Shown here: piece after piece, positions 15,791-53,298 of the stretch
Position numbering within the stretch: position 1 is the stretch's first letter
How the letters are laid out: every line of letters starts with the position of its first letter
Origin: an uncultured Acidimicrobiia bacterium
GTDB lineage: Bacteria > Actinomycetota > Acidimicrobiia > Spongiisociales > UBA11373
NCBI GenBank assembly: GCA_964354255.1
Contig: CAYGYX010000002.1
Coordinates: forward strand, 8,697 to 72,696
Length of the DNA stretch: 64,000 nt
Reading direction: 5' to 3'
Translations under genes and position numbers: made by a program
Notes under the pieces: generated by a model
Told to the model about the DNA's origin: nothing
Database searches by the model: none
Seen by the model: only the letters and a program-made list of their open reading frames with translations

Positions 15791-16987
15791 CTAGGGCACC
15801 ACGCCCAGGGCCCGCCCGACTCGCGTGAAGGCCTCGGCTCCCTTGCCCAGGTCGTCGTCGCTGTGAGCGGCGGACACCATCACCCGGATGCGGGCCTTGC
15901 CGCGCGGGACGGTGGGAAAGCCGATGGCCTGGGCGAACACGCCGTGCTCCTCGAACAGGCGTCGCGATACCTCCTGGGCCAGGGAAGCCTCCCCGAGCAT
16001 CACCGGGGTGATGGGGGTGGCACTGATGCCGATGTCGAACCCGGCCCCCGACATCATCTCCTTGAAACGGCGGGCGTTGGCCCACAGGCGCTCCACCAGC
16101 TCGGTGGAGGACTCGAGCAGGTCGACCGCGGCCAGGCAGGCGGCCACGTCGGCCGGGGTGGCCGCCGAGGAGAACAGGAAGGGGCGGGCCCGCTGGTGGA
16201 GCCACTCGACCAGGGCCGACGACCCGGCCACGTAGCCGCCCATGACCCCGAAGGCCTTCGACATAGTCCCCACCTCGACGTCCACCCGGCCGTGGACGCC
16301 GAAATGGTCGACGATGCCGCGCCCACCTCGGCCCAGCACCCCCTCGCCGTGGGCGTCGTCCACCATAAGCATCGCCTCGTGGCCCTCGGCCACCGGAACA
16401 AGGGCGTCGAGCGGGGCCAGGTCGCCGTCCATAGAGAACACACCGTCGGTGATCACCAGCACCCGGTGGGCCCCGGCAGCCCGAGCTTCGCGGAGGGCCC
16501 GGTCGAGGTCGCCCGGGTCGGCGTGGTGATAGATGGACCGGGCGGCCCGGGTCAGGCGCACCCCGTCGACGATGGAGGCGTGGTTCAGCTCGTCCGAGAC
16601 GACCGCGTCGCCCTCGCCGACCAGGGCGGCGATGGTCCCCAGGTTGGCGGCGAAGCCGGACTGCAGGGAGATGGTGGCGGGCACTCCCTTGAAGCGGGCC
16701 AGCCGCTGCTCGAGCTCCTCGTGGATGGCCATCGTGCCGGCGATGGTGCGCACCGCCCCCGGCCCTACTCCGTAGCGCTGCAGCGCCTCGGCGGCCGCCG
16801 CCACCAGCCGGGGATGGTCGGCGAGCCCGAGGTAGTTGTTGGAACAGAAGTTGAGCACCTGCCGGCCGTCGATGGTCAGCCAGGGGCCCTGCGGCCCGTC
16901 GATGCGCCGGATGGTGGTGTAGAGGCCCTGGCGGCGCAGGGTATCCAGCTCGTCTTGCAGGAAAGCGGTCCGGTCTGCCATGTTCAC
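15791..16987 (-). CDS. kbl: glycine C-acetyltransferase (2-amino-3-ketobutyrate CoA ligase)
   Basis: PLP-dependent class-II aminotransferase fold with the lysine motif GTMSKAFG and strong similarity across the protein to the Kbl/BioF family. It lies immediately downstream of tdh. Confidence 0.8.
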
Positions 16988-16988
16988 C

Positions 16989-18062
16989 TCACGCAGTGGT
17001 CAGCGGCCCGTCGGCGTCGGCGGGGTCCGGGAACATCACCACCTTCCCGCACTGGCCCGAGGCCATCAGGGCGAAGGCGGCCTCGAAATCGGCGAGGGCG
17101 AAGCGGTGAGTCACCATCGGCGCGAGATCCACCGCCCCGCTGCGCAGCATCGCACGCATCTGGTACCAGGTGGCCCACAGGCGCCGGCCGGCGATGCCGT
17201 GCACCGTGGCCCCCTTGAAGACGATGCGGTTGTCGAAGTCGAAATCGATCGTCCGGGAGAACAGGCCGAGCAGCGCGGCCTCACCTCCGGGGCGAAGCAG
17301 GCGGAAGCCCTGGTCGATGGCGGAGGCCACTCCCGACATCTCCAGCAGCACGTCTACGCCGTCCCCGTCGGTGGCCGACATGACGGCCTCGTACAGGTCG
17401 ACCAGGGAGGGGTTGAAGGTGGCCTCGGCCCCCATGGCCCGGGCCAGGGCAAGCCGGTACTCGCTGATGTCGCTGGCCAGCACAGTGCGGGCGCCGAGGG
17501 CTCGGGCGGCGGCGATGGACATCACGCCCACCGGGCCGCAGCCGGTCACCAGCACCTTGCGTCCGGCCACGGCCGGCGTGGAGGCGGTGTGGACCGCGTT
17601 GCCGAAGTTCTCTTGGAGAGAAGCGATCGAGTAGGACATGCCGGGCGGGTCGGGCCAGCAGTTGACCGCCGGGGCGGCCACGAACTCGGCAAAGACCCCA
17701 TCGCGATGCACCCCGAAGATGCTGGTCTGGGGGCACAGGTGCCCCTTGCCGGTGCGGCAGAGCACGCAGACCCCGCACACCACATGCGACTCGACCGATA
17801 CCAGCGAGCCCAGGGGCGGGTCGGAGACACCCTCCCCGTGGGCAACGACGAGGCCACAGGTCTCGTGGCCGATGACGCGCGGCGGGACGACGCGGTCGAC
17901 GGCCCAGGGGTCCCAGTTGCGGATGTGCAGGTCGGTGCCACAGATCGACGCTGCCTTGACCTTGAGGAGCACCTCACCTCGCCCCGGCCGAGGCGTGGGC
18001 ACGTCCACCATGGCAAGGCCGGGGCCGGGGCCCGGCTTCACTACCGCGTGCATCACTCCCAC
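16989..18062 (-). CDS. tdh: L-threonine 3-dehydrogenase (Zn-dependent MDR family)
   Basis: Catalytic Zn site CGTDLH..GHE and structural Zn site CGVCVLC, with the Rossmann motif VTGCGPVG. It is 1 nt upstream of kbl (tdh-kbl operon). Confidence 0.8.
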
Positions 18063-18149
18063 CCTACCGGGCCGGCGCCGCCCGGGGGGCCGGGCGAGGG
18101 ATTTGGGCAGTTCTCGAGGGATTCAACCGGGCGGGCCATACTGTGGCCC

Positions 18150-19793
18150 ATGCGCGCCCGCCTCGCCCTCTCGGCACTGGTCCTCGGGGCCGGCTGGCTG
18201 CCCGCCTCGCCGGCTGCAGCCGGGGGCGAGACCCTGGTGTCGGTGGTTCCGGCGGTGCAGCCGACCTTCCGGGCGACTATGCCGGAACGCTTCGGCGGCG
18301 ACGAGGACGGGGACGGTCTGATCGACCTACCCAACACGGTCGAGTACGTGCAGAGCTGCCCGGGCGCCTGCGACGGCCCCGTGCGCTTCACCCTGCGGCT
18401 GGACGCCTCCGCCAGCCGGGCCACCCTGGCCGGGGCACCGCTGGCGATCATCGGCTATCGATGGCGCATCACCAGCCCGAATGGCCTGTTGCTGGCCCGC
18501 TCGACGTCGCTGCCCGCGGTGGAGGTGCAGTTGCCCGAGGGGACCTACCGGGTGGCGCTCGACGTTCAGGCAGCTCTCGGCTGGGGCACGGCAACCGCGC
18601 GAGTGGAGCGGGAGGTGGTGGTCGAGGACCTGCTCATCGTGGCCGTGGGCGACTCGTATGCCTCCGGGGACGGCAATCCGGAGCGTTCCCGCCCGCCGGG
18701 AGCGGACGAGGCGGTGTGGGCCGATTCACCGGGCGACCCGGCAGCAGAGGCTGCCCACACGACGGCCCATCGCTCCACGGTCGCCTGGCCCGGCCTCGCC
18801 GCCCTGGCGCTGGAGCGGGACGACCCGGCCACTTCGGTGACCTTCGTCTCGCTGGCCGCCACCGGCGCGCGGGTGGGCCGGGGCCTACTGGAGGCGCAGT
18901 CGGGCGACGGCGGGCCGGGACAGCTGGACAAGGTGGCCGCCCTGGTGGGAGGGCGGCGCATCGATGCCCTCCTCGTCTCGATCGGAGGCAACGACATCGG
19001 CTTCGCCCGCATCGTGCGCGGCCTGGTCGACGCCGACCCGCAGGGCGACCCGGTCTGCTACCGGGTCGACGTGGAGAACGTGTGGCGGTCGACGGCCGAC
19101 GGCGACTGGAACCGGGGATCGGGCCTGCGCTTCGCCCTGCCCTGGGGCGTCGCATGCCGCGAGAGGCAAGAGACCGGACGGCCCGTGCTCCCCGGCCTGC
19201 AGGGCCTGCCCGCCGAGCTGGACGCCCTCGCGGCGGGCATCGAGGGGGGCCTCCAGGTGGAGAGGGTCTACCTGATGGAGTACCCGGACCCCACCGGCGC
19301 GGGCGACGGTGTCGAGAGGTGCGCCGAGATCGCCGGAGATCTGACGCCCCCGTTCGGCTTCCATGAGATCGACACCGCCGAGCAGGCCGCCGCCCAGACC
19401 CGGGTGCTGGGCCCGCTCAACCAGGCCCTGGCCGAGGCGGCCCGGCGCCACGGCTGGGTGCTCGTCGATGAGATCGCCAGCGCCTTCGCGGCCGGGCACG
19501 GGTACTGCGCCGAGCGGCCCGACTACGGCGCACCCCCGAACGACCGGGTCGAGACGGCGGCCCCCTTCCCGCGGCTCTCCCCCGAGGGGTGGTACCGCCA
19601 CCCGCTACAGGAGGATCTGAGCGACCTCCTGGCCGAGCCCGGTCTGTCCTGGTACCGGACGGCTTCCCAGTCGGTGGTACTGCAGGGGCCCGGGGCCCGA
19701 TGGGACACGACCGGGACGTTGCACCCCAACGAGCTGGGCCACCTGGCCATGGCGAGGGCCCTCCTGGAGGCCATGCGCCCGGCGGGGGGCTAG
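18150..19793 (+). CDS. secreted SGNH/GDSL-family hydrolase
   Basis: The real start is MRARLALSALVLGAGWLPASPAAAGG (signal peptide), in frame within track ORF 16980..19793. SGNH blocks are present: IVAVGDSYASGDGNP, LVSIGGNDIGF and HPNELGH. The upstream 1.17 kb of the 937-aa track ORF is antisense to tdh and was rejected. Confidence 0.6.
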   Translation: MRARLALSALVLGAGWLPASPAAAGGETLVSVVPAVQPTFRATMPERFGGDEDGDGLIDLPNTVEYVQSCPGACDGPVRFTLRLDASASRATLAGAPLAIIGYRWRITSPNGLLLARSTSLPAVEVQLPEGTYRVALDVQAALGWGTATARVEREVVVEDLLIVAVGDSYASGDGNPERSRPPGADEAVWADSPGDPAAEAAHTTAHRSTVAWPGLAALALERDDPATSVTFVSLAATGARVGRGLLEAQSGDGGPGQLDKVAALVGGRRIDALLVSIGGNDIGFARIVRGLVDADPQGDPVCYRVDVENVWRSTADGDWNRGSGLRFALPWGVACRERQETGRPVLPGLQGLPAELDALAAGIEGGLQVERVYLMEYPDPTGAGDGVERCAEIAGDLTPPFGFHEIDTAEQAAAQTRVLGPLNQALAEAARRHGWVLVDEIASAFAAGHGYCAERPDYGAPPNDRVETAAPFPRLSPEGWYRHPLQEDLSDLLAEPGLSWYRTASQSVVLQGPGARWDTTGTLHPNELGHLAMARALLEAMRPAGG

Positions 19794-22501: not shown

Positions 22502-22650
22502 CGGCGGATCTTAGGGGTTCGGGGAAGGTCGGCATGGCCCTAGAGTGACACCGTGTTCCGGCACCGCACCCGCCTGGTGAAGTGGCTGGGCGTCATCCTG
22601 GCGGTGATGCTGCTGCTCTCCTTCACCCTTCCCCTGCTCCTCTCCGGACG

Positions 22651-23460
22651 GTGAGCGAGGTCTTCCGCCCCGGTGAGCCGTGCCTGCTCGTGGACGGGCG
22701 GGGCCGGCACTACCTGGTCGACCTCGACCCGGATGGTGTCTTCCAGTACCACGTGGGAGCCCTGCCGCTCGGCCGGGTGATCGGGCAGCCGGAGGGGGCG
22801 GTGCTTCGCTCGTCGGGGGAAGGGCGGCTGGTGGCATTGCGCCCCCGCCTGGCCGACTACATCCTCCGGATGCGCCGGGGAGCGCAGGTGGTCTACCCGA
22901 AGGACATCGGGCCCATCCTGCACTGGGGGGACATAGGCCCCGGGATGAGGGTCCTCGAGGCCGGCACCGGGTCCGGGGCGCTCACCATGGCTCTGGTACA
23001 AGCAGTAGGGCCCACCGGGAACGTGGTCAGTGTCGAGGAGCGGCCCGACCACGCGGCCGGGGCCCGCGCTGCCATCCTGCGCTTCTTCGGAGAGCTGCCG
23101 CCCAACCTATCGCTGCGCCTCGGAAGGGTGGAGGACGTGGTGGAAGAGGTGGCCCCCCATCGGCTGGTCCTCGACCTGCCCGAGCCGTGGCTGGTGGTAG
23201 GCCCGGCCGCCGCCGGGCTGGCCGAGGGTGGGGTGCTCACCACCTACCTGCCGACCGTTCCGCAGGTGCAGCACCTCCACGATGAGCTTCGACGCTCCCG
23301 CCGGTTCCTCGACGTCTTCACCTTTGAGATCCTGCTTCGCGAGTGGGTGGCGGAAGGCCGCTCGGTGCGGCCGGCGAGCCAGATGGTGGGTCACACCGGG
23401 TTCATCACCACCGCCCGCAGGGTGGCGCCGCTGGGAGGCGACGAAGAAGACCGGGAATAG
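22651..23460 (+). CDS. trmI: tRNA (adenine58-N1)-methyltransferase TrmI (GCD14 family)
   Basis: Carries the SAM-binding motif VLEAGTGSGALT and TrmI-like N- and C-terminal regions. The start was set at GTG 22651 (VSEVFRPGEP). The track ORF begins at 22582 with a non-conserved extension. Confidence 0.75.
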   Translation: MSEVFRPGEPCLLVDGRGRHYLVDLDPDGVFQYHVGALPLGRVIGQPEGAVLRSSGEGRLVALRPRLADYILRMRRGAQVVYPKDIGPILHWGDIGPGMRVLEAGTGSGALTMALVQAVGPTGNVVSVEERPDHAAGARAAILRFFGELPPNLSLRLGRVEDVVEEVAPHRLVLDLPEPWLVVGPAAAGLAEGGVLTTYLPTVPQVQHLHDELRRSRRFLDVFTFEILLREWVAEGRSVRPASQMVGHTGFITTARRVAPLGGDEEDRE

Positions 23461-23885: not shown

Positions 23886-25607
23886 GTGCCCGAGGGCGAG
23901 AGCTCTGCCGAAGAGTCCGCTCAGACCATCAGGATGCTGGAAGAGGAGATCGCCATCCTCCGGCGGCGGCTGCAGGATGCCCCCCGCCGGGTGCGAGTCC
24001 TGGAGGAGCGCCTGCTCGAGGCGAAGGGCCGGCTCTCGCAGGCGACGTCCCAGAACGAACGCCTCTCGGCGGCTTTGCAGGAAACCCGCGAGCAGCTGAC
24101 GCTGCTGCGGCGCGAAGTGGAGAAGCTGACCGCCCCACCCAACCCCTTCGCCGTGATCGAGCGGGTCAACCCCGACGGCACGCTCGACGTGTTGACGGGA
24201 GGCCGCAAGCTGCGGGTGGGGGTCCAGCCCTCCATCGAGGTCAAAGAGCTGGACCGCGGCCAGGAGGTACTGCTCAACGAGGCCATGAGCGTGATCGACG
24301 TGGGCACATTCGACGCGGGGGGCGAGGTGACCACGGTCAAGGAGGTCCTGGGGGACGGCCGGGTCATCGTCGTCGGGCCGGCCGACGACGAACGGGTCGT
24401 GGGCCTGGCCGGGCCCATGGAGCCGGTTCCCCTGCGGGTAGGGGACGCGGTTCGCCTGGATGCTCGTACCGGGCTGATCCAGGAGCGCCTGGTGCGCCCG
24501 GAGGTCGAAGAGCTGGTGCTGGAGGAGATACCCGACATCACCTACGAGCAGATCGGCGGCCTGACGGCTCAGATCGAGACAATCCGCGACGCCGTCGAAC
24601 TGCCCTACCTCTACAAGCACCTCTTCGAGGACTACGAGCTCAGCGCCCCCAAGGGGGTGCTCCTCTACGGGCCCCCCGGCTGCGGGAAGACCCTCATCGC
24701 CAAGGCGGTGGCCAACAGCCTGGCCGGGGCGGTGGCGGCCAAGACCGGGTCGGTCGACGCCCGCTCCTACTTCCTCAACATCAAGGGCCCCGAGCTCCTG
24801 AACAAGTACGTCGGCGAGACCGAGCGCCAGATCCGCCTCATCTTCGCCCGGGCGAAGGAGAAGTCCGACGAGGGGGTCCCGGTCATCGTGTTCTTCGACG
24901 AGATGGATTCCCTCTTCCGCACCCGGGGGAGCGGCGTCTCGTCGGACGTTGAATCCACCGTGGTACCGCAGCTGCTGTCCGAGCTGGACGGGGTGGAGGG
25001 CCTCAAGAACGTGATCGTGATCGGGGCCTCCAACCGCGAGGACCTCATCGACCCGGCCATCCTGCGCCCCGGCCGACTCGATGTGAAGATCAAGGTGGAA
25101 CGCCCGGACGTGGCGGCCGCCCGGGAGATATTCGGGATCTACCTGCGGCGCAGCCTCCCCTTCGCCGATGACGAGCTGGGGGCTGCCGGGGGCGACCTCT
25201 CCGCTCTGATCGCCTCCCTGATCGACCGGGTGGTGGAGGCCATGTTCGCCACCGTCCACGAGAACCGCTTCCTCGAGGTGACCTATGCCAATGGGGACAA
25301 GGAGACCCTCTACTTCCGCGACTTCGCCTCCGGGGCGATGATCGAGAACGTGGTGCGCCGGGCGAAGAAGGCGGCAATCAAGCGGGAGATCGCCGGCGGG
25401 GCCAGGGGAGTGGGAGTCGGCGACCTGCTGGGGGCGGTGCGCCAGGAGTACCGCGAGCACGAGGACCTCCCCAACACCACCAACCCCGACGACTGGGCCC
25501 GCATCTCCGGCAAGAAGGGCGAGCGCATCGTCTACGTGCGCACCCTGGTGGAGGGAGACACCCCCCACCGCGCCATCGAGGCGATCAGCACGGGCCAGTA
25601 CCTGTGA
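23886..25607 (+). CDS. mpa: proteasome-associated AAA ATPase Mpa/ARC
   Basis: N-terminal coiled coil, Walker A GPPGCGKT, Walker [10 protein letters not shown] and a C-terminal GQYL proteasome-docking motif. It starts at a GTG. Confidence 0.9.
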
Positions 25608-27103
25608 GCCGGTCGGTCCGCAAGATCCTCGGGACCGAGACCGAGTTCGGCATCGCGGTGAGGGGACGGCCGGGCTACGACCCGGTCATGGCCAGCAGCC
25701 TGGCGGTGGCCGCCTACACCGGGCCTTCCCGCACCAACTGGTCCTCCGAGGAGGAGACGCCGGGGCGCGACGCCCGCGGGTTCGCCCGGATTGCCGGCGA
25801 GCCGGACACCGGCATGCTCAACGCGGCGCTGAGCAACGGCGCCCGCCTCTACGTCGACCATGCCCACCCCGAGTACTCGACCCCCGAGTGCTTCGACCCT
25901 CTCGAGGGAGCCCTCTACGACAAGGCGGGCGAGCTGATCATGGCTCAGGCGGCGGCTGCCGTCGAACTCCCTCCGGGCGAGCGGCTGCTGATCTACAAGA
26001 ACAACAGTGACGGGAAGGGCAACTCGTACGGGGCGCACGAAAACTACTTGATGGCCCGGTCGGTGCCCTTCGAGGAGATCGCACGCCACCTCACCGCCTT
26101 CCTGGTCACCCGACAGGTGCTCACCGGGGCGGGGAAGGTGGGGAGCGAGAACGGCCGCCCCCGGGTTTCCTACCAGATCAGCCAGCGGGCCGACTTCTTC
26201 GAGGAGGAGGTCGGGCTGGAGACCACGGTCCGGCGCCCCATCAACAACACGCGGGACGAGCCCCACGCCGATCCTGCCACCTACCGGCGCCTGCACGTGA
26301 TCGTCGGCGACGCGAACCTCTCCGAGCAGCAGATCTTCCTCAAGCTGGGCGCCACCGCCTTGGTGCTGGCCGCCCTCGAGATGGGGACGCTGGGCAAGCC
26401 GGTGGCGCTCGAGAGCCCGGTCGAGTCCCTCTGGCGAATCAGCCACGACCCCACCTTGCGCCGGACCGTCCGCCTGGCCGGCGGGCGCAGCGCGACGGCA
26501 CTCGATCTGCAGCACGAATACCTGAGCAGGGCGGCGGCCGGTGCCGGCGGGGAAGTCGGGGACCCAGTGTCCGGCCGGGTGCTGGCCCTTTGGGAGGAGG
26601 CGCTGGCGGATCTCGAGCGCGATCCGCTCTCCACCTCCGGCTACCTGGATTGGACGGCCAAGCTCGCCTTGCTCGAGGGGTATCGGGAGCGCGATCGCCT
26701 TGCCTGGGATCACCCCAAGCTGCGGCTGCTCGACCTCCAGTACCACGACGTCGACCCGCAGCGCAGCCTGTACGGGCGGCTGGTAGCGGCCGGGCGAATG
26801 AAGCGGCTCTTCAGTGACGAGGAGATCGAACGGGCCACCGTGGCCCCACCGGGGGGGACGCGCGCCTACTTCCGCGGGCGGTGCGTCGCCAAGTACGGTG
26901 AGGCCGTGGTGTCGGCCAACTGGGACTCGCTGGTGCTGGACACGGGCCGGGCTGCTCTCCAACGGGTGCCTATGATGGACCCGCTGCGCGGGGGCCGGGA
27001 GAGCGTGGCCGACCTCATAGATCGGTGCGCCTCGGCCGCCGACCTCGTCCGTGCCCTCGGAGGAAACAATGGCCGAACAGGAACGCAAACACCCCCGTCG
27101 TAG
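25604..27103 (+). CDS. dop: Pup deamidase/depupylase Dop
   Basis: PafA/Dop carboxylate-amine ligase fold ([23 protein letters not shown]). At 499 aa it carries the Dop-specific insertion, and it is positioned immediately upstream of pup. Confidence 0.85.
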
Positions 27104-27263
27104 CGAGGCTCGCCGGGAGGCTGCGGCCGAGCTCGTGACCCCACGGGACGTCGGGGGCGAGCTGACCGAGAAGATCGACGGCCTGCTCGAAGAGATCGAC
27201 AGCGTTCTCGAGGAGAATGCCGAGGAGTTCGTCAGGGACTACGTGCAGAAGGGGGGCCAGTGA
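27069..27263 (+). CDS. pup: prokaryotic ubiquitin-like protein Pup
   Basis: 64 aa, [43 protein letters not shown], with the C-terminal GGQ. The start lies 35 nt inside the dop 3' end. Confidence 0.85.
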   Translation: MAEQERKHPRRSEARREAAAELVTPRDVGGELTEKIDGLLEEIDSVLEENAEEFVRDYVQKGGQ

Positions 27264-28048
27264 TCACCGATCCCCCGGGAGCCCCCGGGTCCCCCGTGCC
27301 GGGCGAGAGCTTCACCGCGCTCTTGCGGGCCCAGGGGATGGAGCCCCGCTGGACCCTCCCCTCCGACGCGTCTCTCCTCGACGCCCCGGAAGGCACCACG
27401 GTGCTGGCCTTCCGCTACGTCGACGGGGTGATCATGGCCGGCGACCGGCGGGCCACGGCCGGCAACGTCATTGCCTATCGCACCATGCAGAAAGTATTCC
27501 CGGCCGATGCATACTCGGCAGTAGGCGTTTCCGGGACGGCCGGGGTGGGGGTCGAGCTGATACGCCTCTTCCAGACCGAACTGGAGCACTACGAGAAGCT
27601 CGAAGGAAGTCGCCTCAGCCTGGAGGGCAAGGCCAACCACCTGGCCGCCATGGTACGGGCCCACCTCCCTATGGCCTTCCAGGGCCTGGTGGTCGTACCC
27701 CTGTTCTGCGGGTTCGATGAGGACGGCGGGCAGGGGCGGCTCTACAGCTTCGACGTGGTCGGGGGGCGCTACGAAGAGACCGACTACGCCGCCACCGGCT
27801 CGGGAGGCCGCGATGCCAAGGCCTACCTCCGCACCGCTTTCCGGGAGTCCTTGAGCGAAGAGGAAGCGCTGCGGCTGGCCATCGAGTCCCTGGTCGCCGC
27901 CGCCGAGGAAGACACCGCGACCGGAGGACCGGACCTGCAGCGCGGGATCTACCCCAATGTGGCAGTCGTGTCGGCAGAGGGATACCGCGAGATCGATGAG
28001 GAGCGGGTGGCGGCCGTGTCTCGCGAGGTGATGGGAGCCGCGCGATGA
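27260..28048 (+). CDS. prcB: 20S proteasome beta subunit (with propeptide)
   Basis: Propeptide then G/TTVLAFRY (Thr1 nucleophile), with the Ntn-hydrolase fold. GTGA overlap with pup. Confidence 0.9.
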   Translation: MITDPPGAPGSPVPGESFTALLRAQGMEPRWTLPSDASLLDAPEGTTVLAFRYVDGVIMAGDRRATAGNVIAYRTMQKVFPADAYSAVGVSGTAGVGVELIRLFQTELEHYEKLEGSRLSLEGKANHLAAMVRAHLPMAFQGLVVVPLFCGFDEDGGQGRLYSFDVVGGRYEETDYAATGSGGRDAKAYLRTAFRESLSEEEALRLAIESLVAAAEEDTATGGPDLQRGIYPNVAVVSAEGYREIDEERVAAVSREVMGAAR

Positions 28049-28719
28049 ACCTCCCCTTCTACGTTCCCCCCGAACAGCTGATGAAGGACCGGGCGGAATA
28101 CGCCCGCAAGGGAATCGCCCGGGGCAAATCGATAGCGGCCGTGGCCTACGCCGACGGCATCCTGCTACTCGCCGAGAACCCGAGCGGCACGCTCCACAAG
28201 ATCGGGGAGATCTACGACCGCATCGCCTTCGCCGGGGTAGGGAAGTACACCGAGTTCGAGGCGCTGCGCGTGGCCGGCATCCGCCATGCGGACCTCAAGG
28301 GGTACGCCTATGCCCGCCGCGACGTGACGGCCAAGGGACTGGCCAACGCCTACGCACAGGTGCTCGGCCAGATCTTCACCCAGGAGATCAAGCCGTACGA
28401 GGTGGAGATCATGGTGGCCGAGGTCGGGAAGGACAGCGGAGCAGATCTCCTGTTCAAGGTCACCTACGACGGCACCCTCTTCGCCGAGGAGCACTACTCG
28501 GCCATCGGCGGCCAGGAGGAACGGCTGACGGCCTTCCTGCAGGAGCACTTCCGTGCTGGAGCCTCCCTACCCGAGGCGCTGGGCTGGGCAGTGGGCGCCT
28601 TCGAGGCGGCCAGCTCGCAGAGGTTCGAGCCCCAGGAGTGGGAAGCCGCGGTTGTCGACCGCACCCTGGGACGGCGCACCTTCCGGCGTCTCCGGGGCGA
28701 GGAGATGACGCCGGCCTAG
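28045..28719 (+). CDS. prcA: 20S proteasome alpha subunit
   Basis: [29 protein letters not shown], the alpha-subunit N-terminus. ATGA overlap with prcB. Confidence 0.9.
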   Translation: [224 protein letters not shown]

Positions 28720-29081
28720 AGCAGCCGGGCCACCACGAGCCAGAGGGTCAGGACCAGGAGCAGCGCCCCCAGGGCCACCGTCAGCGGGCTCCAGCCGGCC
28801 TTCGGCGGGACCGGGGCCCGTTCCGGCTCGCCGTCCGCCAACTCGAGGTGGCTGATGTCCCCCTCGGCCACGAGGCTGCGAGCATCGTCGAGGCGGCTGA
28901 GGGGCACCCAGACCTGGGTGGCGGCCATCTCCCCGATGGTGAGCCGATAGGGCCCAAGAGACTCGCCCCGCAGGCGCGACTCGATACCCTCGGAGCGCAG
29001 GAGAGCGGCACACAGGTCGGCGGCGGCCGGATCGCTCACCGTGGCCAGCAGGAGGAAGGGCTCGGGGTCGGTCGAGGGCAC
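28716..29081 (-). CDS. DUF2007-like (putative signal-transducing) small membrane protein, antisense within the PPS locus
   Basis: This is the C-terminal 121 aa of antisense track ORF 28716..31091. VPSTDPEPFLLLATVSDPAAADLCAALLRSEGIESRLRGESLGPYRL... ends with a TM helix (WSPLTVALGALLLVLTLWLVVARLL). It has a GTG start at 29081. It fills the otherwise empty 428-bp prcA-pafA gap. The remainder of the 791-aa ORF is antisense to pafA and was rejected. Confidence 0.4.
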   Translation of the reverse strand: MPSTDPEPFLLLATVSDPAAADLCAALLRSEGIESRLRGESLGPYRLTIGEMAATQVWVPLSRLDDARSLVAEGDISHLELADGEPERAPVPPKAGWSPLTVALGALLLVLTLWLVVARLL

Positions 29082-29147
29082 CTCCGGATCGTATCGGCCT
29101 CTGCCTCCTAACCGGCCAACGGCCGAGGCCGGGGTACCCTGCCCGGC

Positions 29148-30503
29148 GTGGAACGGCGCATCGTCGGAATGGAGAACGAGTACGGGGTGACCTGCACCCT
29201 GCGGGGGCAGCGGCGCCTGTCCGCCGATGAGGTGGCCCGCTACCTCTTCCGGCGGGTGGTCTCCTGGGGCCGGTCCTCGAACGTCTTCCTCGAGAACGGG
29301 GCCCGCCTGTACCTGGATGTGGGCAGCCATCCGGAGTACGCCACCCCGGAGTGCGACAGCCTCTACGAGTTGGTGGCCCACGACAAAGCGGGGGAGCGGG
29401 TGCTGGAGGGCCTGTTGCACTCCGCCGAGCGCCGGCTGGAGGAGGAGGGCATCAGGGGCCAGGTGTACCTCTTCAAGAACAACACCGACTCGGCCGGGAA
29501 CTCGTATGGCTGCCACGAGAACTACCTGGTGGCCCGGCAGGGGGACTTCCAGCACATCCTGGACACCCTCATCCCATTCCTGGTCAGCCGGCAGGTGTTC
29601 TGCGGCGCGGGCAAGGTGCTCCAGACCACGCGCGGGCCGGTGTACTGCCTGGCGCAGCGCGCCGAGCACATCTGGGAGGGCGTCTCTTCGGCCACTACCC
29701 GCAGCCGTCCGATCATCAACACCCGCGACGAGCCTCATGCCGATGCCGAGCGCTACCGGCGGCTGCACGTCATCGCCGGCGATTCCAACATGAGCGAGTA
29801 CGCCACCTACGCCAAGGTGGGGAGCACCCTGGCCCTGCTGCAGATGCTGGAGGAGGGGGTGGTGTTCCGCGACCTCGGCTTGGAGAACCCGATCCGGGCG
29901 CTGCGCGAGATCAGCCGCGACGTCACCTGCCGGCGCAGGGTGCGGCTGGCGAACGGCCGGGAGCTCTCCGCCCTGGACATCCAATGGGAGTACCTGGAGC
30001 GGGTGCTCCGCTACTCGCGGGCGCATTCCTTCCCGGCGCAGGTCGAGGCCGCGGTCGCGATGTGGGAGCACTTGCTCACCGGCCTGGAGAAGGACCCGCT
30101 CTCTCTGCGGCGCGAGTGCGACTGGGTCGCCAAGTACCACCTCGTGGAAGACTACCGAGCGCATCGCGACCTCGACCTGGGGGACCCGCGGGTCTCCTTG
30201 CTCGATCTCACCTACCACGACGTCAGCCGGGAGCGCGGCCTCTACTACATCCTGCAACGGCGCGGAATGGTGGACCGGGTGGTCACCGACGAAGACGTGG
30301 CGCGGGCCCTGCTCGACCCGCCCCAGACGACCCGCGCCCGCCTGCGTGGAGAGTTCATCAAGGCGGCCAAGGCGCGCCAGCGTGATATCACCGTCGACTG
30401 GGTGCACCTGAAGGTGAACGACCAGGCACAGCGCACGGTGCTGCTCAAGGATCCCTTTCGCGCCTTCGACGACCGCGTCGACCGTCTCATCGCCGGGCTC
30501 TGA
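29148..30503 (+). CDS. pafA: Pup-protein ligase PafA
   Basis: [31 protein letters not shown]. At 451 aa it has no Dop loop, and it sits downstream of prcA. Confidence 0.9.
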
Positions 30504-30563
30504 GGGCACCCTGTCCGCCCGACGGCTTCCACCCACGCCCGGGTCCGGATACAGTCGGCGGCG

Positions 30564-31487
30564 ATGCAGCGAGTGATCGAACGGATCCTGAACCTGCTCG
30601 CCTTCCTGCTCACCGTCGGCCGGCCGGTGACCGCCGAGGAGATCCGGCACACCGTGGCCGGCTACGGACAGGAGGGAGACGAGGCCTTCCGGCGCACCTT
30701 CGAACGCGACAAGGACCTGCTGCGCAGCCTGGGCATCCCGCTGCGGCTGGTCTTCACCGACCGCTGGGAGGTGGAACAGGGCTACCTGGTACCCAAGGAT
30801 GAGTATGCCCTGGCGGACCCCGGCCTCACCGACGAGGAACGAGCGGCGCTGGGGCTGGCCGCCCAGGTAGTGCGCATCGGGGGCCTGGCCTCCGAGCCGG
30901 CGGCTCTCTTCAAGCTGGGGGGGGCTCCCCCGGCAGGCTCGGGAGAGCCCGTGGGCGCCGACCTGGGCGCGGCCTCGGCCGACCTGCCGCTGCTCTTCGC
31001 GGCGGCGGCCGAGGCCCGGGAGGTGGCTTTCACCTACCTCGGCAAGGCTCGCCGAGTCCGACCCTACGGCCTGGTCCACCGGCGGGGCCACTGGTACCTG
31101 GTGGGCCCCCCGGCGGGGGAGACGGCGGTGCGAACTTTTCGCGTCGACCGGCTGGAAGCGCTCCGACTCGGCAATCGGCCCCAGGCCTTCTCCCGTCCCG
31201 CCGGTTTCCGAGCGGCGGACGCCATCCCCGAGGCTCCCTGGGAAGGCGGCGAGGAGGAGGTGGAGGTGACGGTCCGCTTCGATCGCGAGGTGGCCTGGTG
31301 GGCGCGGCGGCAGCTGACCGCCGCCGCCGCAGTCGTCGAGGAGCCCGGCGGTTCCCTGGTGGCCCGCCTGCCGGTGCGAGCCGTTGGTGCCTTCATCGGA
31401 TGGATGGTCGGGTTCGAGGATGCCGCCGAGGTGTTGGAGCCGACGGAAGTACGACAGCGCCTGCTAGCCCATGTGGAGGGCCCGTGA
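30564..31487 (+). CDS. pafB: proteasome accessory factor PafB (HTH + WYL domain regulator)
   Basis: N-terminal wHTH (RILNLLAFLLTVGRPVTAEEI) plus a WYL domain (HWYLVGP). Confidence 0.8.
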   Translation: MQRVIERILNLLAFLLTVGRPVTAEEIRHTVAGYGQEGDEAFRRTFERDKDLLRSLGIPLRLVFTDRWEVEQGYLVPKDEYALADPGLTDEERAALGLAAQVVRIGGLASEPAALFKLGGAPPAGSGEPVGADLGAASADLPLLFAAAAEAREVAFTYLGKARRVRPYGLVHRRGHWYLVGPPAGETAVRTFRVDRLEALRLGNRPQAFSRPAGFRAADAIPEAPWEGGEEEVEVTVRFDREVAWWARRQLTAAAAVVEEPGGSLVARLPVRAVGAFIGWMVGFEDAAEVLEPTEVRQRLLAHVEGP

Positions 31488-32515: not shown

Positions 32516-32806
32516 ATGACCACCATCCGCACCTCATGCCCGCTCTGCGGCGACGTGGAACTGGCCCCGGCCGACCTCTCGTTGCGACTGGCCCCCTGCC
32601 GGGGGACTGGCACCTATCACTTCCGGTGCCCTCATTGCGAAGAGGTGCGGCAGCGCCCCGCCGGTCACCGCGTCGTCAGCATCTTGCTGGCCACCGGCGT
32701 GATGTACGAGGTGGTCGACGAGGAGACCCCGATCACCGAAGGGGAGATTCGGCACTTCGTGGACGGGCTGGCCCGGGACACCTGGCAGGAGCACCTCATC
32801 TCCTGA
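32516..32806 (+). CDS. hypothetical zinc-ribbon protein (CxxC..CxxC)
   Basis: MTTIRTSCPLCGDVE...HFRCPHCEE. It occupies the position held by tatA/tatC in the M. tuberculosis pafC-helY interval. Confidence 0.4.
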   Translation: MTTIRTSCPLCGDVELAPADLSLRLAPCRGTGTYHFRCPHCEEVRQRPAGHRVVSILLATGVMYEVVDEETPITEGEIRHFVDGLARDTWQEHLIS

Positions 32807-32955: not shown

Positions 32956-35493
32956 ATGAGCGCCGTTGGGTACCTGCAGGGGCTTCCCTTTCGCGCCGAT
33001 CGCTTCCAGGTAGACGCGGCCGAGGCCATCGATCGCGGCGAGACCGTGGTGGTTTCGGCGCCCACCGGGTCGGGCAAGACGGTGGTGGCTGAGGCGGCCA
33101 TCGCCCTGGCCCGGCGGCGCGGGGAGCGAGTGCTCTACACCACCCCCCTCAAGGCGCTGTCGAACCAGAAGTACGCCGATCTGCGCGCCCAGCATGGGCC
33201 GGCCGCCGTCGGTCTCCTCACCGGCGACAACTCCATCAACGGTCGGGCTCCCGTCGTCGTGATGACCACCGAGGTGCTCCGCAACATGATGTACGCCGCC
33301 AGCCCCGACCTGGCCGATGTGGGGATCGTCGTCCTCGACGAGGTCCACTATCTCCAGGACCGGGCGCGCGGGCCGGTTTGGGAGGAGATCATCATCCACC
33401 TTGATCGGGCGATTCGCCTGGTCTGTCTCTCCGCCACGGTGGCCAACGCCGCCGAGTTCGCCGGCTGGGTGGAGGCCCGCCGGGGGCCAACCGCCCTGGT
33501 CGTCGAGGGGGAGCGCCCCATCCCCCTGTCGTCGGAGTACCTGCTGCGCGACCGCTGGGAGGGCGGCCGCCTGCGTCTCCTGCCGGTCTTCGGGGAGGGC
33601 GAGGGGCGCCGGTCCAACCCACGGCTCGTCGCCATGCTGCGCCGGACGGGCGAACTGGAGCATCGCTACGCCGCGCCGCGTCGCACCGAGACCTGCGAGT
33701 TCCTGCATCGGGAGGGGCTGCTCCCTGCGATCTACTTCATCTTCTCCCGGGCGGGTTGCGCCGCGGCCTCCGCCCAGGTAGTCGAGCGCGGCCTTCGGCT
33801 CACCACCCGGGAGGAGGCCGCCGAGATCCGGCGCGCCGCCGCCGAGCGCACCGCCCACCTCTCGCCCGGCGATCTCAAAGTGCTCGGCTACGGCCGCTGG
33901 CTGGCCGGCCTGGAGGCCGGCGTGGCGCCCCACCACGCCGGGCTGGTCCCCGCCTTCAAGGAGACCGTGGAATACCTATTCGCCGCCTGCCTGGTGCGCC
34001 TGGTTTTCGCCACCGAGACCCTGTCGCTCGGCATCAACATGCCCGCCCGCTCCGTGGTCCTCGAGAGCCTGTACAAGTTCAGCGGCGAGCAGCACGAGCT
34101 CCTCCAGCCCGGGGACTACACACAACTGACCGGGCGCGCCGGTCGGCGGGGCATCGACCGGCTGGGCACGGCCATCGTCCTGCACTCGCCCTACCTGCCC
34201 TTCGAGCGCGTCGCCGCCATCGCCGCGGCTGGGGCCCATCCCATGCGCTCCAGCTTCCGGCCCACCTACAACATGGCGGCCAATCTGATGGCCGGCTACC
34301 CGCAGGACCAGGCAGAGCGGCTCCTGAACGCCTCCTTTGCCCAGTTCCACGAGGACCGGCTGGCCGGCGACCTGGTCGCGATGATCGAGGACGAGGAGGC
34401 ACGGCTGGCCGCCGACCGTCAAGCCGCGCACTGCGAGTTGGGAGACACCTGGGACCCCAGTGAGCAGGCCCCTTCCGGGCACGACCAGATAATGAGCGCC
34501 TTCGTCTCCTCAACGGCGGCGGGCGATGTGCTCGCCTGGCCGCTGGAGGGCGGACGCGAGATGCGCCAGGTCGTGGTGGCCCGTGGGCATGGGAAGCGCC
34601 CGCGCCTCCTGACGATCGCCGACGACGGGAGCCTGCATCGGCTGCCTCCCGACAAAGTGCCGGCCGCCGCCGCCGTGGCCGGCAGGCTCGATCTGCCCGA
34701 GCCCTATCGGCCCCGCGAGCCCGACTACCGCCGCGAGGTGGCGGCCCTGCTCCGCCGCTGGCAGGCGGGAGGGACGATCCTTCGGCCGGCCTACGCGTCC
34801 GGGGCGTCCGTCCCCGGCGGCGCGGCCGCCTGCCCCGACCTGGCGGCTCACCTGAGGGCGGTTCGCTCGGCCCATCGGCGGGAAACGCGCCTAGAAGCCC
34901 TCCGCCGACGCCAGCGGGTGAGCGGAGCCGGCATGGTTCCCCGGCTCCGGGCCATAGTGGCGCTACTGCAGGACTGGGGCTACGCCGACGACTGGCGCCT
35001 CACTCCCGGTGGCAGGCGCCTCCGCTTCATCTACAACGAGCTCGACCTGCTCCTGGCCGAGTCGCTGGAGCGGGGGTGCTTCGATGGTCTCGATGGCCCC
35101 GAGACCGCCGCCCTGGCCTCGCTCTTCACCTTCGAGCCGCGAGCCGAGGCAGCCCGGTCCGTCTGGCCCACCCCGCGCTTGCAGGAGCGGGCGGAACGTG
35201 TCGCCGAGCTCGCGACCCGACTCGCCTCCGCCGAGGAGGCCGCCGGGTTGTCCCCGACCCGGGCTCCCGAGGCAGGCTTCGCCACGATCGCCTACCGTTG
35301 GGGTAGCGGCGCCGGGCTGGAGGACCTCTTCGGGGAGGAGGGAGTCGGGGTGGGAGACTTCGTGCGCAACTGCCGGCAGCTGATCGACCTTCTTCGCCAG
35401 CTCAGCGACGCGGCCCCGCGGCTCGCGCCCGTCCTCTCACAGGCCCTCGCCGCCGTGGACCGGGGAGTGGTGGCAGCCTCGGGAGCAGTATGA
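32956..35493 (+). CDS. helY: Ski2-like DExH-box RNA helicase HelY
   Basis: Motif I APTGSGKT, motif II DEVH and SAT (LSATVAN), in 845 aa with a C-terminal DSHCT-like region. Confidence 0.85.
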   Translation: MSAVGYLQGLPFRADRFQVDAAEAIDRGETVVVSAPTGSGKTVVAEAAIALARRRGERVLYTTPLKALSNQKYADLRAQHGPAAVGLLTGDNSINGRAPVVVMTTEVLRNMMYAASPDLADVGIVVLDEVHYLQDRARGPVWEEIIIHLDRAIRLVCLSATVANAAEFAGWVEARRGPTALVVEGERPIPLSSEYLLRDRWEGGRLRLLPVFGEGEGRRSNPRLVAMLRRTGELEHRYAAPRRTETCEFLHREGLLPAIYFIFSRAGCAAASAQVVERGLRLTTREEAAEIRRAAAERTAHLSPGDLKVLGYGRWLAGLEAGVAPHHAGLVPAFKETVEYLFAACLVRLVFATETLSLGINMPARSVVLESLYKFSGEQHELLQPGDYTQLTGRAGRRGIDRLGTAIVLHSPYLPFERVAAIAAAGAHPMRSSFRPTYNMAANLMAGYPQDQAERLLNASFAQFHEDRLAGDLVAMIEDEEARLAADRQAAHCELGDTWDPSEQAPSGHDQIMSAFVSSTAAGDVLAWPLEGGREMRQVVVARGHGKRPRLLTIADDGSLHRLPPDKVPAAAAVAGRLDLPEPYRPREPDYRREVAALLRRWQAGGTILRPAYASGASVPGGAAACPDLAAHLRAVRSAHRRETRLEALRRRQRVSGAGMVPRLRAIVALLQDWGYADDWRLTPGGRRLRFIYNELDLLLAESLERGCFDGLDGPETAALASLFTFEPRAEAARSVWPTPRLQERAERVAELATRLASAEEAAGLSPTRAPEAGFATIAYRWGSGAGLEDLFGEEGVGVGDFVRNCRQLIDLLRQLSDAAPRLAPVLSQALAAVDRGVVAASGAV

Positions 35494-36905: not shown

Positions 36906-37724
36906 GTGCACCAGTTGAGGGGAGACACGGCCAAGAGCGCGCCGCCTCTGCGAGTCGCGCGCGGGAACGTCGTCTGCGACCTCGATGGGGTGGTCTACCT
37001 GTCCGATACCGCGGTGCCCGGCGCCGGTGCCGCACTATCGGAAATCGACCGCCGCGGGTACCGCCTGCTGTTCGCCACCAACGCCCCCATCCGCACACCG
37101 GAGGCAGTGGCCCTCCACATCACCTCGGTAAGTGGCTACCCCGCCGCCCCGGACCAGGTGGTCACCTCGGCGATGGCCGCCGCGGAAGTGCTCTCCCCTG
37201 CAGACGCACCGGTCCTGGTGGTGGGGGAGGCAGGGCTGGGCGTCACGCTGCAGCGGTCCGGGTTCTCGCTGACGGAGGATCCGCGGGAGGCTCGGGCCGT
37301 GGTGGTCGGCCTCGACCGCCGCCTGACGTACGACCATCTCCGCATCGCCGCTCAGGCCCTGCTGGGAGGTGCCCGGTTCATCGCCAGCAACCGGGATCCC
37401 ACCTACCCGACCGAGTTCGGGCCCTGGCCGGGGGGTGGGGCCATCGTGGCCGCCCTGGAGGCGGCCACGGGACGGACGGCCGAGGTGGTCGGCAAGCCCC
37501 ACCCACCGATGCGCGACGCCATCCGTCGGCGCCTGGGCTCCGGGCCCACCTGGGTGGTGGGTGACCGCCCGGAGACCGATCTGGCCCTGGGACGCGCAGA
37601 GGGGTGGACCACGGTGCTGGTCCTCACAGGCGTCGTCGAGGACCCCGCGCAGGTCCCCGAGGCCCTCCGTCCCGATCTGGTCCTGGCGACGATCGCCGAG
37701 CTGCCGGCTCACCTCCCAGGCTGA
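36906..37724 (+). CDS. HAD-superfamily hydrolase, subfamily IIA (NagD-like phosphatase)
   Basis: Motif I VVCDLDGVVY, motif II FATN and motif IV GDRPETDL. The GTG start at 36906 was chosen. The track ORF start at 36783 overlaps the upstream gene. Confidence 0.7.
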   Translation: MHQLRGDTAKSAPPLRVARGNVVCDLDGVVYLSDTAVPGAGAALSEIDRRGYRLLFATNAPIRTPEAVALHITSVSGYPAAPDQVVTSAMAAAEVLSPADAPVLVVGEAGLGVTLQRSGFSLTEDPREARAVVVGLDRRLTYDHLRIAAQALLGGARFIASNRDPTYPTEFGPWPGGGAIVAALEAATGRTAEVVGKPHPPMRDAIRRRLGSGPTWVVGDRPETDLALGRAEGWTTVLVLTGVVEDPAQVPEALRPDLVLATIAELPAHLPG

Positions 37725-37740
37725 AGCCGCTGCCTGCCGC

Positions 37741-38490
37741 CTACCAAGTGCCGGCCGCGACCGAGCGGGGAAGGGGCTGCGGGTTGAGGGTGTTGGCCAG
37801 CAGGCGCCGGCGCAGCGGCAGAGCGATCAGCACCCCGAAAAGGAACCCAGCGACGTGCGCTTCCCAGGCGATCCCGGAGGCCGCGTCGACGAGCAGGAAC
37901 TGGCTGACGATCCAGATCCCCAGGAAGGCGACGGCGGGAATGGCCACGATGCGGAACAGCACCAGAGTCAGCACCAGGTGGCGCGGGAAGAGGACCAGGT
38001 AGGCGCCCATCACCCCGGCGATCGCCCCGCTCGCTCCGACCAGAGGGATCGTGGTGTCCGGGTTGGCCCAAACGAACCCCGCCGTGGCAGCTATCCCCGA
38101 AGCGAGGTAGAACAGCAGGTAGGCGAAGGGCCCAAACGCCTCCTCGACGTTGTTGCCGAAGATCCACAGGCTCCACATGTTGAACAGCAGGTGGGCAGCG
38201 CCCCCGTGCAGGAACATGGAGACCCCGGCCGCCAGCCACACGTTCTTGCCGCCGAAATAGGGGGTGGAGGGCTCTTCGCGGCAGACCCCCCCGTTGATCT
38301 CGGCCAGATCGAGCGCGTCGCCGGTGGTCAGCTCGCAGGCGATGGCGGCCCGCTCGTACAGGAACTCGGCTTCCTCCTGGGTCCCGCTCGCCGGCTGCAG
38401 CGCGAAGAACACGATCGCGCAGCCGGCGATGATGGCCCAGCTGATGAGGGGGCGGGCCCGGGTGGGGTTGACATCGCGAATCGGCAGCAA
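37741..38490 (-). CDS. rhomboid-family intramembrane serine protease
   Basis: Carries the GxSG motif (GASGAIAGVMGAYL) and a downstream His in TM6 (HVAGFLFG), across 6 TM segments. Confidence 0.8.
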   Translation of the reverse strand: MLPIRDVNPTRARPLISWAIIAGCAIVFFALQPASGTQEEAEFLYERAAIACELTTGDALDLAEINGGVCREEPSTPYFGGKNVWLAAGVSMFLHGGAAHLLFNMWSLWIFGNNVEEAFGPFAYLLFYLASGIAATAGFVWANPDTTIPLVGASGAIAGVMGAYLVLFPRHLVLTLVLFRIVAIPAVAFLGIWIVSQFLLVDAASGIAWEAHVAGFLFGVLIALPLRRRLLANTLNPQPLPRSVAAGTW

Positions 38491-38528
38491 ATCCGCTTCC
38501 TGTCCCCGCGGGGAGGGATAATAGCTGT

Positions 38529-38657
38529 ATGGATTCTACGCGGATCGACTCCCTGCTCCACGATCTGGAGGATGCCGACCCCGCCGACGCTCCCGACCTC
38601 GCCGAGGCTGTGGCCCGGGCGCTGTCCAGCGGGCTCGATACCGGGGCGGTCCGCTGA
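38529..38657 (+). CDS. small acidic upstream ORF (42 aa) whose stop overlaps the probable tlyA start
   Basis: MDSTRIDSLLHDLEDADPADAPDLAEAVARALSSGLDTGAVR. It has a strong SD (GGGAGGG) 9 nt upstream of the ATG. Its TGA at 38655..38657 overlaps CTG 38654. It is too short for the ORF track. Confidence 0.35.
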   Translation: MDSTRIDSLLHDLEDADPADAPDLAEAVARALSSGLDTGAVR

Positions 38658-39436
38658 CCCGCCGTCGACTCGACCTGGAGTTGGTGCGGCGCGGACTGCT
38701 CACTACCCGCTCCGCGGCACAGCGGGCAATCGCCGAAGGGCGGGTCCTGGTCGGCGGCATGCCTGCCACCCGGTCGGCAACGCTGGTGGATGAGCAAGTG
38801 GCCCTGTCGCTCGTCCGGGAAGGCCCGCAGTGGGCGAGTCGCGGCGGCGTCAAGCTGGCCGCCGCCCTGGAGGCGTTCGCCGTGGACCCCTCCGGCCGGC
38901 GGTGCCTCGACGTGGGCGCCTCCACCGGCGGCTTCACCGACGTGCTCGTGGCCCGGGGGGCGGCCAGCGTGGCTGCGGTCGACGTCGGTTACGGCCAACT
39001 CGACTGGCGGCTGCGCTCCGACCCCCGGGTGAGGGTCTTCGACCGCACCAACTTCCGTACGGCCGACCCGGGGGCACTGGGAGCTCCCTTCGACATGGCC
39101 ACCATGGACGTCTCTTTCATCTCGATCCGCCTGCTGGCCGCCAATCTGGCGGCTTGCGGCCGGCCCGGCACCGACTACGTTGTCCTCGTGAAGCCCCAGT
39201 TCGAGGTTGGGCGAGAGCACGTTGGTCGCGGCGGCCTGGTCACCGACCCTCTCCGGCAGGCGTCCGCGATCGACGGCGCGGCCCGGGCGCTGGCCGCGGT
39301 GGGCATAGGCCCCATCGGGGTCTGCGCCTCACCGATCGCCGGCACTACGGGCAATCGCGAGTTCTTCCTGCACGGCCGACACGGTGCCGGTCCGGCCGTC
39401 GACCGAGCGTCGGTCGAGGCAATGGTGACCCGATGA
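38654..39436 (+). CDS. tlyA: 16S/23S rRNA (cytidine-2'-O)-methyltransferase TlyA (S4 + FtsJ-like)
   Basis: S4 domain (T)RRRLDLELVRRGLLTTRSAAQRAIAEGRVLVGGMP plus the MTase motif LDVGASTGGFTDVL. The conserved N-terminus begins 9 codons upstream of the first canonical start (TTG 38681). The proposed start is CTG 38654. A conservative alternative is 38681..39436. Confidence 0.75.
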   Translation: MTRRRLDLELVRRGLLTTRSAAQRAIAEGRVLVGGMPATRSATLVDEQVALSLVREGPQWASRGGVKLAAALEAFAVDPSGRRCLDVGASTGGFTDVLVARGAASVAAVDVGYGQLDWRLRSDPRVRVFDRTNFRTADPGALGAPFDMATMDVSFISIRLLAANLAACGRPGTDYVVLVKPQFEVGREHVGRGGLVTDPLRQASAIDGAARALAAVGIGPIGVCASPIAGTTGNREFFLHGRHGAGPAVDRASVEAMVTR

Positions 39437-53223: not shown

Positions 53224-53298
53224 CGGGCTGTGGCGCAGCTTGGTTAGCGCGCTTGACTGGGGGTCAAGAGGTCGCCGGTTCGAATCCGGCCAGCCCGA
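53224..53298 (+). tRNA. tRNA-Pro (anticodon GGG)
   Basis: Manual cloverleaf: acceptor CGGGCUG/CAGCCCG, D-stem GCGC/GCGC, anticodon stem CUUGA/UCAAG, loop CUGGGGG (U33, G34-G36 = GGG, G37), T-arm GCCGG-UUCGAAU-CCGGC and discriminator A. 75 nt with no encoded CCA. Confidence 0.8.

Follow-up and report, generated by a model that had tools for sequence, protein, structure and literature searches.

Nearly all that is known of the Pup-proteasome system comes from mycobacteria, Rhodococcus, and Streptomyces, and Cpa is among its known parts. The other parts described so far are Mpa/ARC, Dop, Pup, PrcBA, PafA, PafBC, and PafE/Bpa, of which Mpa and PafE carry a C-terminal GQYL motif for docking to the proteasome (PMC13091356). 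This list contains no small PII-like component and no membrane-bound component, and two reviews of the system (PMC3511204, PMC13091356) make no mention of one.

The Pup-proteasome locus analyzed here comes from an uncultured Acidimicrobiia bacterium (GenBank assembly GCA_964354255.1, contig CAYGYX010000002.1, positions 8,697 to 72,696 of the forward strand). The whole stretch of 64,000 nucleotides (nt) is referred to as the window, and positions are counted from its first letter. Between 22.5 and 35.5 kb, the plus strand of the window carries a canonical actinobacterial Pup-proteasome locus. Between prcA, which encodes the proteasome alpha subunit, and pafA, which encodes the Pup ligase, a gene coding for a 121-amino-acid (aa) protein of the Pfam family DUF2007 lies on the opposite strand. 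Taken as a whole, the observations are best explained by a real gene that is fixed at this locus, is accompanied by leaderless promoters, and has an accessory role in the system, an account that we consider moderately probable.

Like PafB and PafC, the 121-aa protein is encoded beside pafA in the Pup-proteasome locus and is conserved without being universal. It has no sequence or fold relation to PafB/PafC, PafE/Bpa, or Mpa/ARC and differs from them also in being encoded on the opposite strand. In contrast to Mpa/ARC and PafE/Bpa, it has no exposed GQYL; its C terminus reads ...LWLVVARLL and falls within or after a predicted transmembrane (TM) helix. The lack of an exposed GQYL-type C terminus excludes the protein as a proteasome activator of the known type. 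To our knowledge, the DUF2007 gene is absent from the model organisms of the Pup-proteasome field.

A protein-coding gene antisense to the Pup-proteasome locus

The gene for the DUF2007 protein occupies positions 28716 to 29081 of the minus strand, with a GTG start at 29079 to 29081 and a TAG stop at 28716 to 28718. It is convergent with prcA (28045 to 28719, plus strand), which was identified from its open reading frame (ORF), from matches to the Proteasome Pfam family in homologous loci, and from synteny in tblastn searches, and it is divergent from pafA (29148 to 30503, plus strand), which was identified from its ORF, from matches to the Pup_ligase Pfam family in homologous loci, and from an alignment of PafA sequences.

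An initial annotation of the sequence had described a prcA-pafA interval of 428 bp without any plus-strand ORF and, on the minus strand, a 791-aa ORF whose last 121 codons were protein-like and Arg-poor and whose remainder was junk antisense to pafA. The interval has the same extent in the present analysis (28720 to 29147). Its plus strand is not free of ORFs, as a mechanical ORF of 157 aa (28638 to 29111) spans the gap, but this ORF starts out of frame within prcA and has a noncoding GC pattern, which leaves the conclusion unchanged. The description of the minus strand held in both parts. The ORF extends from 28716 to 31091, and the gene consists of its last 121 codons, which had a GC content at codon positions 1, 2, and 3 (GC1, GC2, and GC3) of 0.77, 0.51, and 0.92 (28716 to 29078) and encode a protein with 6.6% Arg. 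These values match those of dop, prcB, prcA, pafA, and pafB (GC3 of 0.85 to 0.93 and GC2 of 0.43 to 0.51), and a stop codon interrupts the frame on the plus strand whose third codon positions coincide with those of the minus-strand gene. The upstream part of the ORF (29082 to 31091, minus strand) is noncoding; it covers the 66-bp intergenic region and continues opposite pafA and the beginning of pafB, with GC1, GC2, and GC3 of 0.91, 0.45, and 0.73 (29151 to 31091), the signature of a real gene that is read backwards.

The GTG at 29079 to 29081 is the only suitably placed start codon, and translation from it begins with MPSTDPEPF. An aligned start position, mostly ATG, is shared by 26 homologues, and gene callers placed the start at the position aligned with 29081 in all related loci. 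The identical 121-aa protein, starting with M, is already called as a gene on an 87-kb contig of an NCBI assembly. In codon alignments with 14 related loci, changes within the DUF2007 domain were mostly found at third positions (for example, 7/2/21 and 7/7/28 changes at positions 1/2/3), and the ratio of nonsynonymous to synonymous substitution rates (dN/dS) of the domain was 0.13 to 0.25 in comparisons with closer loci and rose to as much as 0.58 for the most distant one. Such purifying selection on the amino acid sequence indicates that the protein itself matters.

High-GC DNA produces open frames by chance, and this frame could be one of them rather than a gene: long spurious ORFs are common in the window, and the same frame runs on through 670 codons of junk. 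The probability of this explanation is negligible, as it is refuted by an above-threshold Pfam match, by the coding GC3 phase, by dN/dS values well below 1, and by the existence of hundreds of homologues and a conserved promoter box. The minus-strand segment 28716 to 29081 is a real protein-coding gene, and its case illustrates that, in high-GC genomes, a real gene may be just the last 121 codons of a 791-codon ORF.

Domain architecture and predicted fold of the DUF2007 protein

The similarity to DUF2007 and the C-terminal TM helix, both claimed in the initial annotation, were borne out. Residues 12 to 73 matched Pfam DUF2007 (PF09413; profile positions 4 to 64 of 66) with a score of 31.7 bits, compared to a gathering cutoff of 25.7 (E value of 1.7e-7). 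When Pfam was scanned at E values of up to 10, DUF2007 was the only match, and there was no match to the P-II family. No family match to the 121-aa protein was found in NCBIfam, and a sequence search of the PDB with the family profile gave no match.

An AlphaFold2 model was built from a 74-sequence alignment and had a mean predicted local distance difference test (pLDDT) score of 79, with ten-residue block means of 83 to 92 over residues 11 to 70. The model places the DUF2007 domain at residues 9 to 73 (28863 to 29057, minus strand) and consists, over this range, of beta1 (residues 9 to 15), alpha1 (18 to 30), beta2 (36 to 39), a short helix (46 to 52), beta3 (55 to 60), and alpha2 (61 to 73). 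As modeled, the domain has the form of a small PII/CutA-like sandwich (beta-alpha-beta-beta-alpha), and its fold matches that of a solved member of Pfam DUF2007 (“putative prokaryotic signal transducing protein”; PDB 2HFV). It is followed by an acidic/proline-rich, variable linker (residues 74 to 98; 28788 to 28862, minus strand), which is poorly conserved and predicted to be disordered (pLDDT of <50 at residues 84 to 93), and by a putative C-terminal TM helix, or tail anchor (residues 99 to 120; 28722 to 28787, minus strand), beyond which a single residue remains. The TM helix was predicted by AlphaFold2 as well as by hydropathy, with the top 19-residue Kyte-Doolittle window, from residue 100, reaching 2.63. 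A C-terminal hydrophobic segment was found in all of 72 close and all of 120 broader family members (90 to 200 aa). The N terminus is polar (MPSTDPEP) and has no signal peptide, and the protein is tail anchored by prediction. Given the lack of a signal peptide and the single residue after the helix, we infer a cytoplasm-facing domain on a tail anchor as the simplest topology.

The most conserved segment of the protein (residues 36 to 50, RLRGESLGPYRLTIG; 28932 to 28976, minus strand) forms the beta2-beta3 connection in the model and belongs to a conserved stretch that reads RLRGESLGPYRLTIG-MAAT-VWVP. G39 and Y45 do not vary across the broad family, and there is almost no variation at L37, R38, or W97, the last of which is located at the membrane edge. 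By these alignments, the proteins make up a discrete subfamily within DUF2007, and they are distinguished from DUF2007 at large by an invariant motif, LRG-x3-GPY, and by their fixed position in the Pup-proteasome locus.

The likeness to PII and PII-like proteins (GlnB/GlnK, PstA, SbtB, and CutA1) is one of fold only. Compared to PII, the 121-aa protein has a single beta-alpha-beta-beta-alpha unit that lacks the last strand, as well as a predicted membrane anchor, and no T-loop or nucleotide-binding motifs were identified in it. The fold is very common, and any resemblance to the ring-building-motif domains of the type III secretion inner-ring proteins PrgK, EscJ, and MxiJ, with which the sequence identity is only 15%, is of this general kind. 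The two differ in context, as no secretion genes lie near the DUF2007 gene, and in location, as its domain is predicted to be cytoplasmic, whereas those of PrgK, EscJ, and MxiJ are periplasmic.

Homologues and conservation of genomic position

A single-sequence search produced 69 homologues of about 120 aa, with identities of 48 to 97% and the same architecture, and a search with the family profile produced at least 1,751 clusters at 90% identity, with 309 representatives at 50%. All named sources were metagenome-assembled genomes of uncultured Acidimicrobiia, Acidimicrobiales, or “Actinomycetota bacterium,” and the relatives were labeled “hypothetical protein” or “DUF2007 domain-containing protein.” Eight members with the GPY motif were looked up in their genomic context (P0009, P0039, P0060, P0079 [40% identity], P0078, P0096, P0175, and P0335 [profile E value of 4e-6]), and all eight were encoded between a convergent prcA and a divergent pafA. 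A generic DUF2007 protein with a TM segment and without the GPY motif, P0290, was encoded outside this slot, beside an Rce1-like gene. The presence of P0335 in the slot and the absence of P0290 from it set the locus-linked proteins apart as a branch of their own within DUF2007.

A scan of 185,579 species genomes returned 12 loci, 11 of which were real, and the arrangement was the same in all 11. The twelfth (L016, Rubrobacteraceae) was rejected as a chance match in a junk frame, as PafA and PrcA were both missing from its surroundings and the sequence was not domain-like. One locus, L101, was evaluated, on account of its gene calls, as an exception without prcBA and was rejected as such after tblastn revealed frameshifted prcA and prcB. 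Many genes of L101 are split by frameshifts, which resembles an assembly artifact. L101 also has a short-chain dehydrogenase gene between pup and prcB, and L101 and L102, which belong to a more distant branch, have a DUF3866 gene between pafA and pafB. In the profile search, a repetitive protein of 1,047 aa (P0257) gave eight short matches to the family profile (positions 32 to 55); this protein is probably a compositional or repeat artifact and not a relative.

The junction was also surveyed independently of the DUF2007 gene by scanning metagenomes with a PafA alignment, which produced 80 loci with PafA identities of 68 to 89%; these were searched with a hidden Markov model from the broad family alignment. 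Eight loci were too short to judge, leaving 72 usable loci. In 33 of these, a homologue of the DUF2007 gene lay upstream of pafA in the opposite orientation, and prcA was visible on its far side in 25. Divergent members from the survey retained the domain and the LRG...GPY signature, with Pfam DUF2007 scores of 17.7 to 26.1 bits, of which those of 17.7 to 23 bits are below the threshold. Together with the genome scan and the look-ups, the survey bears out the suggestion of the initial annotation that a lineage-specific antisense gene is conserved in homologous Pup-proteasome loci. In a neighbor-joining tree of PafA, loci with the DUF2007 gene fell on several separate branches, interleaved with loci that lack it. 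This scattered distribution fits an old acquisition followed by repeated loss, and the pattern, with many related loci that do without the gene, implies that the protein is not needed for the core pathway.

Several observations weigh against an accessory role in the Pup-proteasome system. The DUF2007 gene was missing from 39 of the 72 usable survey loci: in 23, prcA and pafA were less than 200 bp apart; in 8, a larger gap was found; and in 8, no prcA was seen. In other lineages, the prcA-pafA junction is filled by unrelated genes, the translations of which suggest secreted proteins with Cys motifs, a likely LamB/YcsF-type protein, and a possible cupin. Gene order in the Pup-proteasome locus is rigidly inherited (PMC3511204), so the conserved synteny could be passive. 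The TM tail is absent from some divergent members or replaced by an Arg-rich tail, which indicates that membrane tethering is not essential to the role of the family, and a literature search found no characterized DUF2007 member.

These losses and the other occupants of the junction would be expected if the gene were a passenger, that is, if it encoded a real DUF2007 membrane protein with no relation to pupylation or the proteasome that entered a permissive junction early in the Acidimicrobiia and was inherited with losses. Functionally unrelated ORFs that separate pafA from prcA have been reported (PMC3511204), and the architecture of a DUF2007 domain with a TM segment also occurs outside these loci, as in P0290. 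We regard a passenger as the main alternative, though a less probable one than an accessory gene that is fixed at the locus. The gene was in its slot in every genome locus and every GPY-motif look-up, even at 40% identity, and it keeps the slot even where other genes have been inserted on either side. The compact back-to-back arrangement of its promoter and that of pafA has been kept as well, and persistence over such divergence exceeds that of most passengers.

Other ORFs recur in the junction. Several lineages, some with the DUF2007 gene and some lacking it, have a secreted or lipoprotein-like ORF with a conserved W-x-D/E-x-F-C motif (L041, 3329 to 3901; L049, 2453 to 3193; L062, 1813 to 2526; and L069, 1139 to 2038). 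L067 and L089 instead have a LamB/YcsF-type-looking ORF in the junction.

Putative leaderless promoters and convergent stop codons

Two −10-like sequences are located between the start codons of the DUF2007 gene and pafA, and both are predicted, from the sequence and the comparison of loci, to be leaderless promoters. TACGAT (29088 to 29093, minus strand) is 6 nt upstream of the GTG of the DUF2007 gene, which has no usable Shine-Dalgarno spacing, and TACCCT (29135 to 29140, plus strand) is 7 nt upstream of the GTG of pafA and would serve pafABC. The boxes were detected solely by comparing loci, and their counts come from phylogenetically related loci and are not independent, although the sequence around the boxes is not conserved: for the DUF2007 gene, a TAC[GC]AT-type box was found 6 to 8 nt upstream of the start in 12 of 16 close loci (13 if L013 starts at an in-frame GTG), and a TANNNT box 5 to 9 nt before a leaderless-type start was found in 27 of 33 surveyed loci; for pafA, all 16 close loci had a TAC[CG]CT-type box 6 to 8 nt before the start, and 65 of 76 surveyed loci had TANNNT 5 to 9 nt before it, whether they carried the DUF2007 gene or not. 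The background rate of a TANNNT box before start-like triplets in these loci was 1.2%. In actinobacteria, transcription starts about 6 to 7 nt downstream of the TANNNT −10 box, and many mRNAs are leaderless. Given this background and the spacing of the boxes, both genes are probably leaderless, each with a promoter of its own.

The start codons of the two genes are separated by a divergent intergenic region of 66 bp (29082 to 29147, both strands). The length of this region in close loci was 46 to 94 bp, mostly 58 to 74 bp. The two −10 boxes are 41 bp apart, and their −35 regions coincide; with starts so close together, coupled or competitive regulation of the two genes is possible. A PafBC-type (RecA-NDp-like) motif was not seen upstream of the −10 boxes when the intergenic sequence was inspected by eye, and no formal search for it was made. 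A consensus scan of positions 28400 to 29500 detected no sigma-70-type promoter and no terminator in or beside the DUF2007 gene, and the only terminator-like site in this range was inside pafA (29485 to 29497).

Two proposals of the initial annotation concerned transcription, and neither is supported as it was put forward. The first placed the antisense gene inside a co-directional operon. The putative −10 box of pafA suggests that pafABC is a separate unit and that the DUF2007 gene stands at the border of dop-pup-prcBA and pafABC; in most of these lineages, pafABC is probably leaderless and independently transcribed.

The second proposal, that of a transcriptional insulator, concerns the other end of the gene. 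The TAG stop of prcA is at 28717 to 28719, and that of the minus-strand gene is the reverse complement of 28716 to 28718, so the two convergent genes overlap by 4 nt in the palindrome CTAG (28716 to 28719, both strands), as had been described. If the gene acted as an insulator or antisense regulator, convergent transcription into prcA would block read-through to pafA, or the overlapping 3′ ends would regulate prcA, and the protein would be secondary. The overlap leaves no space for a terminator between the genes, and at least five related loci share it by their coordinates (L001, L002, L007, L010, and L011), with two more that probably do (L006 and L008). With no terminator-like site detected within the gene or next to it, the 3′ ends of both transcripts probably overlap. 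Such a function is nevertheless very unlikely. Strong purifying selection on the amino acid sequence, an invariant motif, and a conserved architecture argue for the protein. A putative promoter of its own precedes pafA even in loci without the DUF2007 gene, so no insulator is needed. The overlap of stops is replaced by a gap in L003 (30 bp), L013, and L015, and RNA folding around the shared stops was no better than that of shuffled sequences on either strand (z scores of +0.92 and −0.48).

Neighboring genes and other features of the window

Upstream of prcA, the plus strand carries a gene for a trmI-like methyltransferase (22582 to 23460), arc/mpa (23886 to 25607), dop (25604 to 27103), pup (about 27051 to 27263), the product of which has the C terminus GGQ, and prcB (27260 to 28048). 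On the other side of the DUF2007 gene, pafA is followed by pafB (30564 to 31487), pafC (end at 32416), and a gene for a helY-like helicase (32956 to 35493), all on the plus strand. The end of dop extends over the beginning of pup, as it does in L002 and L003, and overlaps of 4 nt were found between pup and prcB (27260) and between prcB and prcA (28045). The tight packing of dop, pup, prcB, and prcA suggests translational coupling.

An ORF of approximately 96 aa lies between pafC and the helY-like helicase gene (about 32519 to 32806, plus strand). It contains two CxxC pairs (CPLCG...CPHCE) and is zinc-ribbon-like, and its Pfam matches to zinc ribbons were all below threshold. L001 to L004 have a 96-aa gene without a recorded Pfam match in the same slot. 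Two long ORFs of the window, at 16980 to 19793 (plus strand, 937 aa) and 37709 to 39220 (minus strand, 503 aa), had no Pfam match at an E value of ≤1e-5 and may be spurious frames over real genes in this high-GC window. An Rfam scan of the whole window gave one match, a tRNA at 53224 to 53298 (plus strand), and none in the prcA-pafA gap.

Possible role of the DUF2007 protein

From synteny alone, the protein can tentatively be regarded as an optional component of the Pup-proteasome system with an accessory or regulatory role, to which we assign slightly less than an even chance. In such a role, the conserved beta2-beta3 segment (R38, G39, and Y45) could bind a partner, which might be PafA, Dop, the proteasome, or a small ligand, and in most family members, binding would take place at the inner membrane face. 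Expression of the DUF2007 gene and pafABC may be coupled, either by one regulator or by polymerase competition.

A bolder proposal, which we consider improbable, is that the proteins act as small sensors or adaptors with a PII-like domain and, in most cases, a membrane tether. Through the conserved beta2-beta3 loop, they would bind either PafA, a ligase with the glutamine synthetase fold, or Dop, the paralogue of PafA, and would tune pupylation to a metabolite or energy signal, with expression coupled to that of pafABC through the shared 66-bp divergent region of leaderless promoters. The logic of such control of PafA or Dop would resemble that of the control of glutamine synthetase by PII.

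The sequence itself is known, in that the gene is called in public assemblies and the protein is an ordinary member of an uncharacterized Pfam family. Searches of open-access papers and preprints returned nothing on the function of DUF2007 and nothing on pupylation in Acidimicrobiia, and the conserved link to the locus thus appears to be unreported, as do the paired putative leaderless promoters. If the gene is a passenger, its product is an ordinary hypothetical protein. If the accessory reading is true, a gene that a whole class of uncultured Actinomycetota keeps between prcA and pafA would represent a candidate lineage-specific regulator or membrane tether of pupylation, and the orphan family DUF2007 would gain its first functional context.

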